This document shows, piece after piece, positions 1 through 12,038 of a stretch of 64,000 nt of DNA (the first letter of the stretch is position 1; the number at the start of each line of letters is the position of its first letter). The stretch comes from Escherichia coli (GTDB lineage: Bacteria; Pseudomonadota; Gammaproteobacteria; Enterobacterales; Enterobacteriaceae). The notes beneath the pieces are model-generated. The model searched no databases. It was not told where the DNA came from and saw only the letters and a list, made by a program, of their open reading frames with translations. The DNA lies in assembly GCF_024502345.1 (NCBI RefSeq), contig NZ_JALDNN010000001.1. One strand, given 5' to 3'. The translations under genes were made by a program, and so were the position numbers.

Positions 1-168
1 ACGCGTCATTACTCAGTGGAAAATTGCGCAGAGGAAAGCTGTCGAGACTGCAATAGTTGCATTCGCCCCAGCTTTTCCCTTTCGCGTAGCGCCCTTATTC
101 GCCTGAACGCGGCGAATGCTCGTTTTGTCTATCAACCGTTTACACGCGATCAGCGGGCGAGGGGGTAA
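1..168 (+). CDS. possible 3' end of an upstream ORF cut by the window edge (frame 1 open from nt 1, stop TAA at 166-168)
   Basis: 55 stop-free codons from the window edge, ending 2 nt before the ATG at 171; too short to assign a family. Confidence 0.25.
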   Translation, partial: TRHYSVENCAEESCRDCNSCIRPSFSLSRSALIRLNAANARFVYQPFTRDQRARG

Positions 169-170
169 CT

Positions 171-938
171 ATGCAACCCAGCCCTGCCATGCAGGCATTA
201 ATTGAGCAGATTTATCACACCTTTCGTCGTTATCGGGTGCCGCAGAAATTTGTGGTTTGTTGTGAATATTGCCTGAGTCAGCAGGAACAAAAGGCATTAC
301 GGAGTACATCGTTACGAGCGATCCCGTATTCCTTAATCAATGCCTGGAATAGTAGCCCAGGGCCTGATCCGCAAAATAGCGATGAGGTCCGCTATTTTCT
401 GCCGCGTTTACTGGAATTTGTTGCACAGGGGCATTTTGACAATATTCACGTAGTTTTTTCTCTGCGCCGTATCAACCTTGCCAACAAAGAAAACTGGCGT
501 GCGGATGAACGGGCAATTTTACAGCGATTTGCCTGCCAGTATATGACTGATTGGGTATCCGGCGATGAAGCTGTCGAATTACAGTATATGCTGGAAATGT
601 TTTTCCGTGCCGATATCGCTCTTGCGCCATTGCTGGATGCCATTAATTCAGTTCCCGGCTTTTGGTCGACCGTTTCTCTTGCCTGTTTATTGAACAGATA
701 TTGTGAGGATTATATCAGAGATAACCAGGACGATATCGATAACGCCATTACCACCCAAATCAATGCCTGGGCTAGAAATAATCATCCTTTACTGAAAGAA
801 AGAGCGCGGCAAGCGATTGAGAACCCGCTAAAACAGCCCGAACCAATGACAGAATATCATGTCTGGGAAGATGACTGGATAATTGATGAGTGTTTATGCG
901 CGATGTATGACGCATCATCCGAATCACCAGGAAAATAA
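171..938 (+). CDS. hypothetical soluble protein, 255 aa, no family recognised
   Basis: ORF track; ATG preceded by GAGGGGG; AT-rich relative to glpD; cysteine clusters near both termini (VVCCEYC and ECLCAMY); not recognisable as any K-12 protein of this locus. Confidence 0.55.
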   Translation: MQPSPAMQALIEQIYHTFRRYRVPQKFVVCCEYCLSQQEQKALRSTSLRAIPYSLINAWNSSPGPDPQNSDEVRYFLPRLLEFVAQGHFDNIHVVFSLRRINLANKENWRADERAILQRFACQYMTDWVSGDEAVELQYMLEMFFRADIALAPLLDAINSVPGFWSTVSLACLLNRYCEDYIRDNQDDIDNAITTQINAWARNNHPLLKERARQAIENPLKQPEPMTEYHVWEDDWIIDECLCAMYDASSESPGK

Positions 939-940
939 AA

Positions 941-1546
941 ATGATTAAATTCCGGCTTTATATTCCCCCTGTAATTCTCGGTTTTGTTATCGTGCCATTA
1001 TTGGTATGGCCGACGGTTATTGTCTTAGCCGTACTTATATTCACGTTAACTTTTCTGGCAGAAATAATATTCTCCTTTCCGCTCCTGGTTGTACGTATTT
1101 CTCTTCAGGAATTACAACTTGAGTTAATGGTTGAATATGCACTTTTTTTCAGTGTAATGGCTGGCATCGGTTGGCAATTCTCCCGCAGAACGCCTCCTGA
1201 ATTAAAAAACAGACTGCATTGCTGGCTGGTCTTTTCGCCGGTCTATTTCTGGTTAATTCTCTCGAATTTCATTCTTTATATTTCTCCAGAGAAATCAGCG
1301 TTGCTGGAAAATATCCGAAATTTCTTTCTGACGTTTGTCTGGCCTCCCCTGAATTTTTCCCCTTTTTGGCCGCAGCCTTGGACTGATTTTGTCGGCCCGA
1401 TTAGTGCACAGCTTGGTTTTGCATTGGGATATTATTGCCATTGGTGCAGAAAAAATAGAAACCAGAGGAAGAAGTGGGGCGATTGGGTAACGTGCTTAAG
1501 TTTGGCGATTTTAGCTCAGGGGCCGTTATTCAATTATTTACAATGA
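941..1546 (+). CDS. hypothetical polytopic inner-membrane protein, 201 aa
   Basis: ATG 2 nt after the stop of the previous ORF, AGGAAA upstream; 4-5 hydrophobic helices; basic C-terminal tail (CRKNRNQRKKWG); 35-38% GC in two sampled 60-nt stretches. Confidence 0.5.
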   Translation: MIKFRLYIPPVILGFVIVPLLVWPTVIVLAVLIFTLTFLAEIIFSFPLLVVRISLQELQLELMVEYALFFSVMAGIGWQFSRRTPPELKNRLHCWLVFSPVYFWLILSNFILYISPEKSALLENIRNFFLTFVWPPLNFSPFWPQPWTDFVGPISAQLGFALGYYCHWCRKNRNQRKKWGDWVTCLSLAILAQGPLFNYLQ

Positions 1547-1567
1547 ATAGTCTAAGGAATCCAAATA

Positions 1568-1590
1568 GCCCGGTTGCACTTCAACCGGGC
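1568..1590. terminator. stem-loop (GCCCGGTT-loop-AACCGGGC) in the convergent gap just downstream of the glpD stop
   Basis: inverted repeat read directly; lies between the ends of convergent genes. Confidence 0.4.
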
Positions 1591-1597
1591 ATCATCC

Positions 1598-3103
1598 TTA
1601 CGACGCCAGCGACAACTTCTGCTGCGTATATTCCACCAGCCACTGACTCACACGAGATTGTTGATCCGCATTCAGCCACATGCCTTGTTTTGTGCGACGC
1701 CAAAGGGCATCGTCGGTGCGGCGGACCCATTCGTGATCCACCAGGTATTTCAGTTCCGCTTCGTAGAACTCATGACCGAAATCCTCCCCGAGGTCGCTTA
1801 TCGCCCCCGCATTGCCGAGCAGCAGCTCGCTGTTGCTGCCGTAAGTGCGTGCGTAATGACGCGCCAGCGATTCAGTCAGGAATGGATAGCGACGGCGCAG
1901 ACGAGCTGCGTAATCGTCGCGGTCGCCTTCAATGGCACCACCCGGCAGCACGCTCTCTTTCGTCCATGCCGGGCCAATGCCCTGATAATACGGCGTCAGT
2001 TTTTCCAGCGCATGTTCCGCCAGTTTGCGGTAGGTGGTCAACTTACCGCCGAATACCGACAGCAGCGGTGCTTTGCCGTTTTCATCATGGATATCAAGGG
2101 TGTAATCACGGGTAATAGCCTGCGGCGAGTCGGACTCATCATCACACAGCGGACGCACACCGGAGTAGGTCCAGACGATATCGTCACGGCTTAACTGCTT
2201 TTTAAAGTGCGTGTTATACACTTTCAGCAGGTAATTGATTTCACTCTCTTCAATCTTCACCGCTTTCGGATCGCCTTTGTATTCCACATCGGTGGTGCCG
2301 ATGATGGAAAACTCGTCCATCCACGGGATCACGAACACAATGCGTTTATCTTCGTTTTGCAGAATGTAGGCCTGCTTTTGGGTATGCACGCGCGGCACCA
2401 CAATATGGCTGCCTTTGATCAGGCGAATGCCATAAGGCGAAGGCAGATGCATCCCGTCGTCGAAGAACTGTTTCACCCACGGGCCGGTGGCGTTAACCAA
2501 GCCGCGCGCTTGCCAGCTATATTTTTTGCCGGTATCGATATCTTCCGCTTCCACAATCCACAGGCCGTTTTCGCGGCGAGCAGAGGTGGCGCGAGTCCGA
2601 GTAAGCACTTCGCCGCCTTTACGCACCACCATCTGGGCGTTGGCGAGTACCAGACGGGCGTCGTCTACCCAACAGTCAGAATATTCGAATCCGCGCTTAA
2701 TTTCCGGTTTTAACACTGAATTTGCGCCAAAACGCAAACCGGTTGATCCCGGCAGGCTGGTGCGTTTACCCAGATGATCGTACATAAACAGACCAATGCG
2801 AATCATCCACGCCGGGCGCAGATGCGGACGATGTGGCAGGCGAAAACGCATCGGGAAGGCGATATGCGGAGCCATTTTCAGCAGCACTTCACGTTCAGCC
2901 AGCGCCTCGCTGACCAGGCGGAATTCATAGTGCTCAAGGTAGCGCAGGCCACCGTGAATGAGTTTTGAACTGGCGGAAGAGGTCGCGCAAGCGAGATCCT
3001 GCGCCTCCAGCATCAGCACGGATAAACCGCGTCCAGCGGCGTCTGCCGCGATACCAGCACCATTGATGCCGCCACCTATCACAATCAGATCTTTGGTTTC
3101 CAT
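1598..3103 (-). CDS. glpD: aerobic glycerol-3-phosphate dehydrogenase (FAD-dependent)
   Basis: 501-aa product from METKDLIVIGGGINGAGIA (FAD-binding GxGxxG); ORF track extends 5 codons upstream; matches K-12 GlpD from memory. Confidence 0.95.
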   Translation of the reverse strand: METKDLIVIGGGINGAGIAADAAGRGLSVLMLEAQDLACATSSASSKLIHGGLRYLEHYEFRLVSEALAEREVLLKMAPHIAFPMRFRLPHRPHLRPAWMIRIGLFMYDHLGKRTSLPGSTGLRFGANSVLKPEIKRGFEYSDCWVDDARLVLANAQMVVRKGGEVLTRTRATSARRENGLWIVEAEDIDTGKKYSWQARGLVNATGPWVKQFFDDGMHLPSPYGIRLIKGSHIVVPRVHTQKQAYILQNEDKRIVFVIPWMDEFSIIGTTDVEYKGDPKAVKIEESEINYLLKVYNTHFKKQLSRDDIVWTYSGVRPLCDDESDSPQAITRDYTLDIHDENGKAPLLSVFGGKLTTYRKLAEHALEKLTPYYQGIGPAWTKESVLPGGAIEGDRDDYAARLRRRYPFLTESLARHYARTYGSNSELLLGNAGAISDLGEDFGHEFYEAELKYLVDHEWVRRTDDALWRRTKQGMWLNADQQSRVSQWLVEYTQQKLSLAS

Positions 3104-3136
3104 GCTGCCCTCATTCACTTTCGTTAAAGCTCATAA

Positions 3137-3154
3137 ATGTTCGTTATCGAACAT
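3137..3154. promoter_or_regulatory. GlpR operator-like palindrome (ATGTTCGTTATCGAACAT) in the glpD / glpEGR divergent control region
   Basis: perfect-ish inverted repeat of the TGTTCG...CGAACA type in the divergent intergenic region. Confidence 0.5.
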
Positions 3155-3214
3155 ATTAGCAAAGAATCGCCCTTTAGGTAACATTGAAAAAACATTTTAG
3201 AGTGATATGTATAA

Positions 3215-3619
<405 letters not shown>

Positions 3620-3651
3620 CGCTTTATACTGTCCCCTTTTGTGTGGAATAA

Positions 3652-4494
<843 letters not shown>

Positions 4495-4510
4495 TTCCAG
4501 GGATTTATAA

Positions 4511-5269
4511 ATGAAACAAACACAACGTCACAACGGTATTATCGAACTGGTTAAACAGCAGGGTTATGTCAGTACTGAAGAGCTGGTAGAGCATTTCTCC
4601 GTCAGCCCGCAGACTATTCGCCGCGACCTCAATGAGCTGGCGGAGCAAAACCTGATCCTGCGTCACCATGGCGGTGCGGCGCTGCCTTCCAGTTCGGTTA
4701 ACACGCCGTGGCACGATCGTAAAGCCACCCAGACCGAAGAAAAAGAGCGTATTGCCCGCAAAGTGGCGGAGCAAATCCCCAACGGCTCGACGCTGTTTAT
4801 CGATATCGGCACCACCCCGGAAGCGGTGGCGCACGCGCTGCTTAATCACAGCAATTTGCGCATTGTCACCAACAATCTCAACGTCGCTAACACGTTGATG
4901 GTAAAAGAAGATTTTCGCATTATTCTCGCCGGTGGCGAATTACGTAGCCGCGATGGTGGGATCATAGGTGAAGCGACGCTCGATTTTATCTCCCAGTTCC
5001 GCCTTGATTTCGGCATTCTGGGGATAAGCGGCATCGATAGCGACGGCTCGCTGCTGGAGTTCGATTACCACGAAGTTCGCACCAAACGCGCCATTATTGA
5101 GAACTCGCGCCACGTTATGCTGGTTGTCGATCACTCGAAATTTGGCCGTAACGCGATGGTCAATATGGGCAGCATCAGCATGGTAGATGCCGTCTACACC
5201 GACGCCCAGCCGCCAGTAAGCGTGATGCAGGTGCTGACGGACCACCATATTCAACTGGAGCTGTGCTGA
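4511..5269 (+). CDS. glpR: DeoR-family repressor of the glycerol-3-phosphate regulon
   Basis: 252 aa; N-terminal HTH, DeoR-type C-terminal domain; gene order glpEGR. Confidence 0.93.
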   Translation: MKQTQRHNGIIELVKQQGYVSTEELVEHFSVSPQTIRRDLNELAEQNLILRHHGGAALPSSSVNTPWHDRKATQTEEKERIARKVAEQIPNGSTLFIDIGTTPEAVAHALLNHSNLRIVTNNLNVANTLMVKEDFRIILAGGELRSRDGGIIGEATLDFISQFRLDFGILGISGIDSDGSLLEFDYHEVRTKRAIIENSRHVMLVVDHSKFGRNAMVNMGSISMVDAVYTDAQPPVSVMQVLTDHHIQLELC

Positions 5270-6849
5270 TCCTGCAATGCTTCCCAGGTCAGACCAAAAC
5301 GCGCCAGGTATTTGCGTAGCCGATCCGCGTCATTGACGCTGGCTTTGCCCTGGCGCGAAACATCAAAAAGCTGTCGTCCGGCAGCAGAAAGCGACTTTGC
5401 CTGGCGGCAGATAGCGATAACGTGTTCCAGTTGCATACGGTCGAAGAGATCGATGTTTTCTGCCTCTGCGCCCAGCAACGCCGTAAGCGCGGAGGGGCGG
5501 CTCTCCTGCCAGTTAAAGCGCAGACGGTTTATCTCATCTTCAACCACGTCCAGAGTAATGCGTCCGCTAGAGGCAAAGGTTGCCATTCGCGTGACGCTGG
5601 CAGAAAGCTCGCGAAAGTTACCGCGCCATGTTGCCTGGGGAGATGTCGCAAAGGCCAGCCAGGCGCGCCGCGCTTCGGTGTTAAAACGCACGCTGTCGCC
5701 GGTGAGTGAAGCGTGGCGCTCCACTTCATAATCCAGGTTAGGTTCAATATCTTCCTGGCGCTGGCGTAGCCCCGGCAGGGTGAAGGTCCAGAGATTGATC
5801 CGCGCGTACAGGTCTTCGCGAAATTTTCCTTCGGCAACCAGCTGGCGCAAATCACGCACCGTTCCGGCGATAAGCTGAAAATCACTGCTCACCTGGCGAT
5901 CGCTGCCAAACGGATAAAAGGTTTTTTCTTCAATGGCTTTAAGCAGCATTGCCTGTTCGTCTGCGCCCAGTTCGCCAATCTCATCAAGAAACAACATTCC
6001 ACCGTTGGCGCTACGTAATAATCCTTCACGGGATTCCCGCGCCCCGGTAAACGCGCCTTTTACATGACCAAACAGCGTCGACATGGCGGTATCGCCGCGC
6101 AGGGTTGCGCAGTTCACTTCCACAAACGCGCCGCTAAACTGATGCCGCGCCTGTTTTAATTCAAATATACGTCGCGCCAGAAATGACTTGCCCGCACCGG
6201 TTGGGCCGTTTAGCAGGATCGGTGCGCGGGATTTAATCGCCACTTTTTCAATCTGCTCAATCATGCGGTTGAAGTGCGGGTTACGCGTGGCAATGCCGGA
6301 CTTAAGAAAATCAAGCGTTTGCTGGCGTTCCTCGGCAAAGCGGCTGGCGATGGCGTTATAACGGCTTAAATCGAGATCGATAATCGTCACTTCACCTGCG
6401 CCGCGCGGCTGTTCTTTTTTGCGCGGAGGTGAAGATTGTATCAACCGGGCGGGCAGGTAACGCGCTTCCGCCAGCAGAAACCAGCAAATCTGCGCGACGT
6501 GGGTGCCGGTGGTGATGTGAATTAAATAGTCTTCTTTTTCTGGCTGAAACTCGTAACCACGGGCGAAATCATGCAGGCAGGCGTAAACCTCTTCGAAATC
6601 CCACGGGTTATGCAGTTCAATCTCAACGCTCACCACTTCTGTTTCTGGCGAAACGCTGGCGATATCGCGTTTAAGCGTTTCAAATAGCGAGCGCGAGCGG
6701 GCGTCATGCAATAATTCCAGTCGATCGATGACCAACGATTCTTGCTGGCATAAACAGAGTGTCGGACGCCATTTCGACCAGCGCTGACTGCCGCGCCCGG
6801 CATAATCCAGCACCGTTCCGACAAAGCCAAAAGCCACTGTTTTACGCAT
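5251..6849 (-). CDS. rtcR: sigma-54-dependent transcriptional activator of rtcBA
   Basis: 532 aa; Walker A GPTGAGKS and GAFTGA signature of bacterial enhancer-binding proteins; 3' end overlaps glpR by 19 nt (convergent). Confidence 0.93.
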
Positions 6850-6983
6850 CTTAGATATCCTTATAAAAGACGATATTTCATTATCGGTGAATTGGTTTTG
6901 TGGAAAATCTCCGTTTACGGACGTAAAGATTTAACCTATTTAAAAACAATGAATTAAAAAATTAATCTGCTTATTTAATTTTC

Positions 6984-6999
6984 TGGCACGACGGTTGCA
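6984..6999 (+). promoter_or_regulatory. sigma-54 (-24/-12) promoter for rtcBA: TGGCAC-N5-TTGCA
   Basis: exact TGGCACgacggTTGCA about 40 nt upstream of the rtcB ATG, next to a divergent sigma-54 activator gene. Confidence 0.75.
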
Positions 7000-7037
7000 A
7001 TTATCACGACAGCAAACAACGAAAAGAGAAAAACAAA

Positions 7038-8264
7038 ATGAATTACGAATTACTGACCACTGAAAATGCCCCGGTAAAAATGTGGACCAAAGGCGTGCCG
7101 GTAGAAGCCGATGCGCGTCAGCAACTTATTAATACGGCGAAGATGCCGTTTATTTTCAAACATATTGCGGTAATGCCTGATGTACACCTGGGTAAAGGTT
7201 CCACCATTGGTAGCGTGATCCCGACCAAAGGGGCGATTATTCCGGCGGCGGTGGGCGTGGATATTGGCTGTGGAATGAACGCGCTGCGTACCGCGTTAAC
7301 GGCGGCAGACCTGCCTGAAAACCTGGCAGAGCTGCGTCAGGCGATTGAAACTGCGGTGCCGCACGGACGTACCACTGGCCGTTGTAAACGTGATAAAGGC
7401 GCATGGGAAAACCCGCCTGTTAACGTCGATGCGAAATGGGCTGAGCTTGAAGCCGATTATCAGTGGTTAACGCAAAAATATCCGCGTTTCCTTAACACTA
7501 ACAACTATAAACACCTGGGAACGCTGGGAACGGGTAACCACTTTATTGAAATCTGCCTTGATGAGTCGGACCAGGTGTGGATTATGCTGCACTCCGGTTC
7601 ACGCGGAATTGGTAACGCCATCGGGACTTACTTTATCGATTTGGCACAAAAAGAGATGCAGGACCAGCTTGAAACGTTGCCATCGCGCGACCTGGCGTAC
7701 TTTATGGAAGGTACGGAATACTTTGATGATTACCTAAGAGCCGTGGCCTGGGCGCAGCTTTTCGCCAGCCTTAACCGCGATGCGATGATGGAAAACGTGG
7801 TAACGGCGTTGCAGAGCATTACGCAGAAAACGGTCAGACAGCCACAAACGCTGGCGATGGAAGAGATCAACTGTCACCACAACTATGTGCAAAAAGAACA
7901 GCACTTTGGTGAAGAGATCTACGTGACGCGTAAAGGCGCGGTGTCTGCGCGTGCTGGTCAATATGGAATTATTCCCGGTTCGATGGGAGCAAAAAGCTTT
8001 ATCGTCCGTGGGCTGGGAAATGAAGAGTCGTTCTGTTCGTGCAGCCACGGTGCCGGGCGGGTAATGAGCCGTACTAAAGCGAAAAAACTGTTCAGCGTGG
8101 AAGATCAAATTCGTGCTACCGCGCATGTGGAATGCCGTAAAGATGCCGAAGTGATCGACGAAATCCCGATGGCGTATAAAGATATTGATGCGGTGATGGC
8201 GGCACAAAGCGATCTGGTGGAAGTTATCTACACCCTGCGTCAGGTGGTGTGCGTAAAAGGATAA
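7038..8264 (+). CDS. rtcB: RNA-splicing ligase RtcB (3'-phosphate/5'-hydroxyl RNA ligase)
   Basis: 408 aa; RtcB family recognised by sequence and by context with rtcA and rtcR. Confidence 0.93.
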   Translation: MNYELLTTENAPVKMWTKGVPVEADARQQLINTAKMPFIFKHIAVMPDVHLGKGSTIGSVIPTKGAIIPAAVGVDIGCGMNALRTALTAADLPENLAELRQAIETAVPHGRTTGRCKRDKGAWENPPVNVDAKWAELEADYQWLTQKYPRFLNTNNYKHLGTLGTGNHFIEICLDESDQVWIMLHSGSRGIGNAIGTYFIDLAQKEMQDQLETLPSRDLAYFMEGTEYFDDYLRAVAWAQLFASLNRDAMMENVVTALQSITQKTVRQPQTLAMEEINCHHNYVQKEQHFGEEIYVTRKGAVSARAGQYGIIPGSMGAKSFIVRGLGNEESFCSCSHGAGRVMSRTKAKKLFSVEDQIRATAHVECRKDAEVIDEIPMAYKDIDAVMAAQSDLVEVIYTLRQVVCVKG

Positions 8265-9284
<1,020 letters not shown>

Positions 9285-9297
9285 TGTAAAGATGTAA

Positions 9298-9321
9298 GCC
9301 GGATCCAATGCATTATCCGGC
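9298..9321. terminator. palindromic hairpin (GCCGGAT...ATCCGGC) between convergent rtcA and malT
   Basis: inverted repeat read directly in the 42-nt convergent gap. Confidence 0.4.
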
Positions 9322-9326
9322 TAAAC

Positions 9327-12038
<2,712 letters not shown>

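Follow-up and report, generated by a model that had tools for sequence, protein, structure and literature searches.

Introduction

The RNA 3'-phosphate ligase RtcB is well studied in bacteria as an enzyme, whilst little is known about which substrates it acts on in the cell and which proteins assist it. An association of RtcB with Band-7 proteins and a predicted 'band 7-associated tRNA', abbreviated b7a-tRNA, has been put forward by Burroughs & Aravind in 2016 (cited in bioRxiv 10.1101/312249), and such Band-7, tRNA-like and RtcB systems are known only from comparative genomics. RlaP, the RNA-ligase-associated Polbeta nucleotidyltransferase, adds nucleotides to damaged RNA 3' ends (PMC12776372). 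In Anabaena, an HNH gene accompanies long tRNA arrays (L-arrays) that share their regulation with rtcB when translation is stressed (PMC8421152), and the TrcR regulon takes in rtcB together with HNH genes and the operon alr0739-alr0740, which pairs a hypothetical gene with a slipin (Band-7) gene (PMC10272220). Here, we describe a gene at positions 171..938 (+ strand) of a 64,000-nucleotide stretch of Escherichia coli DNA (contig NZ_JALDNN010000001.1 of assembly GCF_024502345.1; the whole stretch is hereafter the window), which RefSeq labels as a hypothetical protein, WP_001183157.1. Relatives of this gene recur in operons with RtcB, Band-7 proteins and tRNA genes, and we propose, with moderate confidence, that the E. 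coli gene encodes an accessory factor of RNA repair by RtcB, one that is orphaned and probably has no catalytic activity. We use FAM as shorthand for this 255-amino-acid (aa) protein and its family members alike, and L-numbers as labels of the loci analysed.

Results

An unnamed family with a helical-repeat fold

The E. coli gene begins at an ATG and encodes 255 aa, exactly as a sequence-only reading of this DNA had reported. That reading also described a soluble protein with an acidic C-terminal third, cysteine clusters at both ends (VVCCEYC and ECLCAMY) and no recognisable catalytic motif, and these descriptions stand. The protein is hydrophilic (grand average of hydropathy, GRAVY, -0.40; isoelectric point 4.4) and lacks any hydrophobic segment, which argues that it is soluble; its last third carries 17 D/E against 8 K/R; and its eight cysteines (positions 30, 31, 34, 122, 172, 178, 241 and 243) include the two clusters, Cys30/31/34 and Cys241/243. 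A search for homology to characterised families gave no assignment: the target matches nothing in Pfam, NCBIfam, PADLOC, PHROGs or, whether as a single sequence or as a family profile, among PDB sequences. The Pfam DNA_alkylation (AlkD-like) profile does not match it, and zero Pfam families are matched by 70 diverse members.

Relatives are nevertheless plentiful. An exhaustive phmmer search over 1.84 billion representatives returned 461 clusters at E<=1e-3, of which 62 reach E<=1e-10; they are mostly 240-270 aa long and drawn from many phyla, and E-values to non-enteric members run from 1e-8 to 1e-48 over most of the length. Viral contigs held no relatives, leaving a phage origin of the gene unsupported. 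A name for the family turned up neither in Pfam or NCBIfam nor in the literature that we found, in which Burroughs & Aravind (2016) is represented through the citing paper only, and the target almost certainly belongs to an unnamed, experimentally uncharacterised family. Some members depart from the usual single domain and single copy: in Pseudoclavibacter, a 570-aa protein (L010:4688-6400; P0135) matches the family in two separate stretches and looks like two family domains fused in tandem, and another enterobacterium carries a pair of tandem paralogs, 41% and 52% identical, at a site unrelated to the E. coli one, without the neighbours seen in E. coli.

The fold is predicted to be an all-alpha HEAT-like helical repeat. 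AlphaFold2, supplied with a 70-sequence alignment, produced a model of twelve helices with a predicted local distance difference test score (pLDDT) of 90.3 and a predicted template modelling score (pTM) of 0.90, and Foldseek against AFDB50 matched this model to uncharacterised proteins at template modelling (TM) scores of 0.65-0.88 over ~250 columns (probability 1.00). The phyla with the same fold are Proteobacteria, Bacteroidota, Firmicutes, Actinobacteria, Chloroflexi, Myxococcota and Deinococcota.

Within E. coli, the gene is present at full length in 2961 of 5426 complete genomes (~55%), always on the chromosome and almost always in single copy. Its alleles share 85-99.7% nucleotide (nt) identity and differ by up to 0.076 nonsynonymous (dN) and 0.41 synonymous (dS) substitutions per site, where glpD shows ~0.004-0.009 and <=0.23, respectively; divergence of the protein is 10-20x that of the flanking core genes. 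Pairwise dN/dS (omega) is 0.16-0.29, signifying purifying selection, and this ratio, taken with the 2961 genomes and the 461 clusters of relatives, marks the target as a genuine gene and not a chance open reading frame.

Linkage of family members to RtcB, Band-7 and tRNA genes

Nearest to the enteric clade in a neighbour-joining (NJ) tree lies a subtree that holds the Band-7-linked proteobacterial relatives, and its loci bear most on the E. coli protein. At locus L101, 22 tRNA genes are followed by an HNH gene, a weak tRNA-like match, Band-7, FAM and RtcB, with gaps of 48 and 15 nt around FAM; L100 has the same order up to FAM, after which an integrase interrupts. Besides the tRNA-like gene, an HNH gene and long tRNA arrays often lie upstream of FAM in Proteobacteria. 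FAMs from Band-7-FAM-RtcB operons are 27-31% identical to the target by BLASTP (E 1e-10 to 1e-19). A metagenome scan gave 23 loci, among which Band-7 precedes FAM in 14 and RtcB follows it in all 13 that have more than 1.3 kb of downstream flank, a proportion that is partly ascertainment because the scan was seeded from the subtree nearest the enteric clade, with mostly Band-7-linked sequences. The RtcB proteins that follow proteobacterial FAM are 63-67% identical to E. coli RtcB over their full length.

The linkage extends to phylogenetically distant bacteria. A scan of species-representative genomes gave 80 loci, 79 of them usable, and the family member is single-copy in 77 of the 79. Pfam matches among the 142 immediate neighbours included RtcB (8), RlaP (6), Polbeta nucleotidyltransferases (3-5) and the WYL and WCX domains together (3), and RtcB lies on the same strand as FAM in 16 of the 79 loci, often adjacent to it and with overlapping stop and start codons. 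In Flavobacteriaceae, the partners were resolved by clustering and a barcoded Pfam scan, with PrfH and RtcB identified separately. The resulting island usually consists of a divergent WYL/WCX regulator; RtcB, FAM and two RlaP paralogs; and, at a greater distance, Band-7, another RtcB, PrfH and a TPR protein. The order of the genes is shuffled among flavobacterial genera and the linkage persists; the loci also carry same-strand arrays of 12-18 tRNA genes. A Verrucomicrobia locus joins FAM to RtcB across a 6-nt gap, and on a low-GC metagenome contig a WYL gene is divergent from FAM, which is followed by a tRNA-like element, Band-7, 13 tRNA genes and RtcB. As the flavobacterial members form one clade in the NJ tree, with the Verrucomicrobia locus and a Flavobacterium locus (WYL and RlaP) falling outside it, the linkage arose or persisted independently; the separate origins comprise the flavobacterial clade, L054, L044, L008 and the proteobacterial group. 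Operon linkage that is repeated and partly independent in this way makes it very probable, as far as gene order can tell, that the family is functionally linked to RtcB repair.

Several further features of these islands deserve mention. A single tRNA or tRNA-like gene lies 200-400 nt upstream of Band-7 in most Band-7-FAM-RtcB operons, with anticodons for Thr, Met, Asn or Ile, and some copies score weakly as tRNA; it is probably the predicted b7a-tRNA. Examples of such tRNA-like genes are L100:8478-8551, L102:198-270, L109:2354-2428, L110:8192-8268, L115:8153-8229, L117:8181-8256 and L008:9065-9115. Same-strand arrays of 12-22 tRNA genes occur in the RtcB/RlaP/Band-7/WYL islands that carry family members (L047:1150-3779, L075:13974-15733, L078:14805-16007, L081:9932-11449, L086:14406-16298, L008:2543-4073 and L101:5279-7673). 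These arrays are found in Flavobacteriaceae, on a low-GC metagenome contig and on a high-GC contig of proteobacterial origin, and resemble the cyanobacterial L-arrays. Among the arrayed tRNAs are some odd types (L077:12870-12942, L068:12669-12741, L101:7345-7417 and L060:14060-14131): one is called 'SeC' on a tca anticodon, two have undetermined anticodons of two bases, and one is a Cys tRNA with aca, which suggests non-canonical or decoy tRNAs.

In the flavobacterial islands, tandem RlaP-family paralogs (~248 aa and ~352 aa) come directly after FAM at L062:8669-10485, at L077:8675-10470 and at seven further flavobacterial loci. Two RtcB paralogs per island are found at L062 (6629-8020 and 11780-13171) and also at L075, L078, L084 and L086; FAM is paired with a divergent RtcB that shares 26% identity with the E. 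coli enzyme, and PrfH and the TPR protein with a more canonical one (33%). Lastly, very large WGR/DUF4132 proteins lie near two unrelated members, one proteobacterial (L097:11195-19760, also with an AAA_5 ATPase) and one from Actinomadura (L009:12607-15873), and this neighbourhood may be a second recurrent context of the family.

The cysteine knuckle and other conserved residues

In the full-length alignment, eight positions are near-invariant across the family (Y15, F18, C30, C34, P78, R79, E113 and W200), and further conserved residues include R49, E72, K/R74, E82, R100 and W109. The E. coli target has all eight, and they are kept in 14 Escherichia alleles, with the exception of a Cys at position 79 in one. 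C30 and C34 belong to a three-cysteine knuckle, Cys30-Cys31-Glu-Tyr-Cys34 in the target (codons at 258..272, + strand), which lies in a long loop after the first helix in the AlphaFold2 model. Cys occupies C30 and C34 in 68 of 70 members, with a third at column 33 in 51 or at column 31 in 19, and at least three Cys fall within a seven-residue N-terminal window in 130 of 146 members (89%), far above chance. Their spacing is interchangeable between CxxCC, CxCC, CxCxxC and CCxxC, the target being of the last kind and most members of the first two. Near-invariant C30 and C34 with a third Cys at 31 or 33 fit a small putative metal or redox site.

The sequence-only reading had gone further and suggested a metal site that brings the two termini together. 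Its N-terminal half is borne out by conservation, whereas the C-terminal pair, Cys241-Leu-Cys243 (codons at 891..899, + strand), is specific to the Escherichia lineage: these columns hold Cys in only 3-4 of 70 diverse members and lack it in ~95%. A site with four conserved metal ligands drawn from both termini was not found in the family, and no fourth ligand is conserved in the same chain across it. Since C241 and C243 are invariant in the 14 Escherichia alleles even though residues 221-255 are the most variable segment, a lineage-specific site that uses the C-terminal cysteines is possible in Escherichia. An HHSxE motif occurs in about half of the family and has been lost by the enteric clade; the idea that its missing His was replaced by C-terminal Cys finds no support in the counts (69/57/12/8).

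A variable insert between glgP and glpD

In E. coli, the core genes glgP and glpD flank a variable insert of low GC content in which the target sits; glpD (1598..3103, - strand; open reading frame and RefSeq annotation) is convergent with the target and forms the right boundary of the insert. GC content is 45% and 42% for insert genes and 55% for glpD. The commonest insert has four same-strand genes, which encode a PstS-like protein, a 236-aa protein labelled YbbD, the target and a 201-aa membrane protein, with 2-nt gaps separating the last three. In the window, the YbbD-labelled gene is represented by its 3' end (1..168, + strand), cut by the start of the window and with its stop codon 2 nt before the target ATG, and the membrane protein gene (941..1546, + strand), recognised by its hydrophobic segments, starts 2 nt after the target stop. 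Across E. coli, the glgP|glpD junction is a hotspot of variation (window 1-1546; L001:12809-16597; L012, L014; L006:7520-8134). Across strains, dS is ~2-4x higher in insert genes (171-1546) than in glgP, glpD and glpG (flank 1598-4494), suggesting long-standing allelic lineages or recombination that imported alleles repeatedly. Scanned for promoters and terminators, the insert showed no signal stronger than in shuffled sequence, apart from the hairpin of the glpD terminator.

The annotations of these neighbours call for some caution. The label 'YbbD family' (window 1-168; L001:14458-15168; L128:6641-7131), applied by the Prokaryotic Genome Annotation Pipeline (PGAP), is unsupported: it derives from a 22.6-bit match over 43 residues to an NCBIfam model with a cut-off of 373, and tblastn against the K-12 rhsD-ybbC-ylbH-ybbD region, in which ybbD is a pseudogene, detected no similarity. 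The YbbD-like protein has no Pfam domain, its model is of low confidence (pLDDT 61) with no fold match, and the gene occurs only in Escherichia/Shigella and close relatives. The membrane protein gene has no Pfam or NCBIfam match. As for the PstS-like gene (L001:12934-14442), ~200 N-terminal residues with about six hydrophobic segments precede its PBP_like_2 domain, and judging from these segments its product is a membrane-anchored binding domain and not a classical periplasmic PstS.

Each of the neighbours can be missing. A fimbrial operon takes the place of the PstS-like gene in some E. coli strains; strain S7 (L013) has lost the YbbD-like gene and kept the target; and an enteric species whose target is 70% identical (L125) has the PstS-like, YbbD-like and target genes at the same site without the membrane gene. 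In K-12, which lacks the target, the insert is reduced to its first 346 nt; this stretch carries the annotation yzgL and is a 5' remnant of the PstS-like gene region. The sequence-only reading had proposed to gauge the gene's partners by whether homologues keep the membrane protein and the upstream gene beside them; outside Escherichia and its closest enteric relatives they never do, homologues of the PstS-like gene being likewise absent there, and a dedicated partnership with these neighbours is refuted on that gauge. An obligate partnership with the membrane, YbbD-like or PstS-like gene was also rejected, each being absent near relatives and missing in some enteric genome. The insert at glgP|glpD is horizontally acquired, and the neighbours of the target are lineage-specific and dispensable.

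The same window contains the rtc operon, 4-6 kb from the target. The gene for RtcR, activator of the rtcBA RNA-repair operon, lies at 5251..6849 (- strand), and rtcB at 7038..8264 (+ strand), both by open reading frame and annotation; rtcB is 6.1 kb from the target across four core genes.

Discussion

The evidence points to an RNA-repair accessory family over the effector, immunity or regulator options that the sequence-only reading had left undecided. We posit that FAM most likely acts as a helical adaptor or cofactor that would bind RtcB, a Band-7 scaffold or the RNA substrate, with the Cys knuckle holding a metal or serving as a redox-sensitive site. In the Escherichia lineage, the Band-7/RtcB operon has been lost and an orphan copy left behind with its invariant residues kept. 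The retention of these residues, together with purifying selection, argues that the E. coli protein preserves its core molecular activity, and E. coli RtcB is a candidate partner in trans. A present-day role of the E. coli copy in RNA repair is a tentative proposition, which we hold to be somewhat doubtful. A bolder version is rather unlikely in our view: FAM could be a dedicated third subunit or cofactor of E. coli-type RtcB, bridging Band-7 and a tRNA-like RNA via a metal site in the Cys knuckle, with the orphan copies in E. coli modulating tRNA or rRNA repair in trans.

A number of observations weigh against a role of the E. coli protein in RtcB repair. The target is not in an operon with RtcB or Band-7, and window positions 1-12000 contain no Band-7, RlaP, WYL, tRNA-like or Y-RNA element (Rfam returns nothing at E<=1). 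Nor is the proximity of rtcBA conserved: the related enteric species has the target at the same site and no rtc operon, K-12 has rtcBA and no target, and strain S7 carries the target (L013:10083-10768) alongside truncated rtcR and rtcA pseudogenes and a deleted rtcB. We therefore give this proximity little weight, and S7, which keeps the target without rtcB, demonstrates that the two loci are not co-dependent. At the level of the family, ~62 of the 79 genome loci are without RNA-repair neighbours, so the RtcB/Band-7 linkage is strong in some clades only and defines sub-clades, not the whole family. The target is no closer to flavobacterial RtcB-linked members (26 median bits) than to unlinked ones (39); even within the subtree nearest the enteric clade, L097-L099 are without Band-7 or RtcB neighbours; and the seeding of the metagenome scan, noted above, tempers its 13 of 13. 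Lastly, any physical contact of FAM with RtcB or Band-7 is putative, and the conserved candidate metal ligands number only three.

The main rival explanation is that the enteric clade has been neofunctionalised after losing its RtcB/Band-7 context, the protein now serving as a protein-binding adaptor that works with the YbbD-like protein, and sometimes with the PstS-like and membrane proteins, in an envelope or signalling role that has nothing to do with RNA repair. The YbbD-like and target genes are 1-2 nt apart, close enough to suggest translational coupling, and both are present together in E. coli and the 70%-identical enteric species; the loss of HHSxE and the gain of an invariant C-terminal Cys pair would fit a changed function, as would an insert without any RNA-repair partner and the 10-20x divergence of the protein relative to its flanking core genes. 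However, each of the supposed partners is dispensable, as the YbbD-like deletion in L013, the fimbrial operon that replaces the PstS-like gene and the missing membrane gene in L125 illustrate, and the enterobacterium with tandem paralogs has none of them. The retained family-invariant residues argue, moreover, for an unchanged core activity. On balance we regard neofunctionalisation as unlikely.

Less probable again is that FAM is a catalytic or cluster-carrying protein, in which the knuckle would bind an Fe-S cluster or metal at a dimer or partner interface and FAM would be a metallochaperone or redox protector of the metal- and Cys-dependent active site of RtcB, or an enzyme; the metallochaperone or protector role would be another mechanism inside the same repair system. 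RtcB works with Mn2+ and a Cys in its active site, and a redox protector is required by the human ligase. In 89% of members, three or more Cys stay clustered in a stretch of seven residues even as their positions shift, which speaks for such a role, as does the tight linkage of the gene to RtcB, and the lack of a conserved fourth ligand in the same chain fits an intermolecular site. Against this, the family has no similarity to known Fe-S, zinc-finger or oxidoreductase families, Cys ligands are atypical for Mn2+, and 16 of the 146 members have fewer than three Cys.

That the insert is an orphan immunity island against polymorphic toxins (Rhs-type or contact-dependent inhibition, CDI, type), with FAM as an immunity or antitoxin-like protein that would disarm a toxin through binding, is very improbable and was rejected: a variable low-GC insert with 85-99.7% allelic nt identity and dS up to 0.4, an upstream PGAP 'YbbD family' label (K-12 ybbD follows an Rhs fragment), tandem paralogs in one enterobacterium and the occurrence of the family in polymorphic-toxin-rich taxa could all suggest it, but there is no adjacent toxin gene, the label fails as described above, PADLOC, Pfam and NCBIfam give zero matches, 77 of 79 loci are single-copy, the large neighbours of relatives are type IX secretion system (T9SS) cargo or metabolic enzymes and not Rhs proteins or toxins, the recurrent neighbours are RNA-repair genes, and selection is purifying overall.

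Returning to the accessory protein of RtcB repair that we favour, the family is newly identified as the constant, conserved and uncharacterised middle gene of Band-7/RtcB operons and as part of tRNA-array and RNA-repair islands, which turns thousands of 'hypothetical protein' entries into one defined family. A homologue in a tractable organism is at hand: the gene is found in ~55% of complete E. coli genomes and not in K-12, providing natural presence/absence strains, the partner RtcB in the operons is of the E. coli type, and the Cys knuckle offers mutants. If FAM does modulate RtcB in trans, strain differences in tolerance of ribotoxins or ribosome-targeting antibiotics would be partly traceable to this gene.

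It remains to set the gene beside the systems that it most resembles. Like polymorphic-toxin immunity proteins, FAM is encoded in a low-GC insert by a small gene that evolves fast and varies between strains; it differs from them in having no adjacent toxin and no immunity or defence match, and in being rarely arrayed. HEAT-like repeat proteins of ~250 aa, namely the 'DNA alkylation repair' proteins AlkD/AlkC, MIF4G and TOG domains, also count among the nearest systems, and the target is without a DNA_alkylation match. Archease is an alpha/beta protein, whereas the target is predicted to be an all-alpha solenoid, and the two share no sequence or fold match. The analogy is one of arrangement: archease and the other accessory subunits of eukaryotic and archaeal RtcB ligase complexes are likewise small non-ligase proteins genetically coupled to RtcB, which makes a cofactor role for FAM a natural analogy, and an analogy only.

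Two further comparisons are with the systems described at the outset. No tRNA array lies near the E. coli target, in contrast to the L-arrays of Anabaena; its relatives do share their islands with 12-22 tRNA genes, HNH and RtcB, as in Anabaena, and alr0739 is compared here by description only. Compared with the Band-7, b7a-tRNA and RtcB operons, the E. coli gene stands apart, with neither Band-7 nor a tRNA-like RNA nor an adjacent rtcB. Relatives of it are part of these operons, placed between Band-7 and rtcB, downstream of the tRNA-like gene and with an RtcB of the E. coli type.

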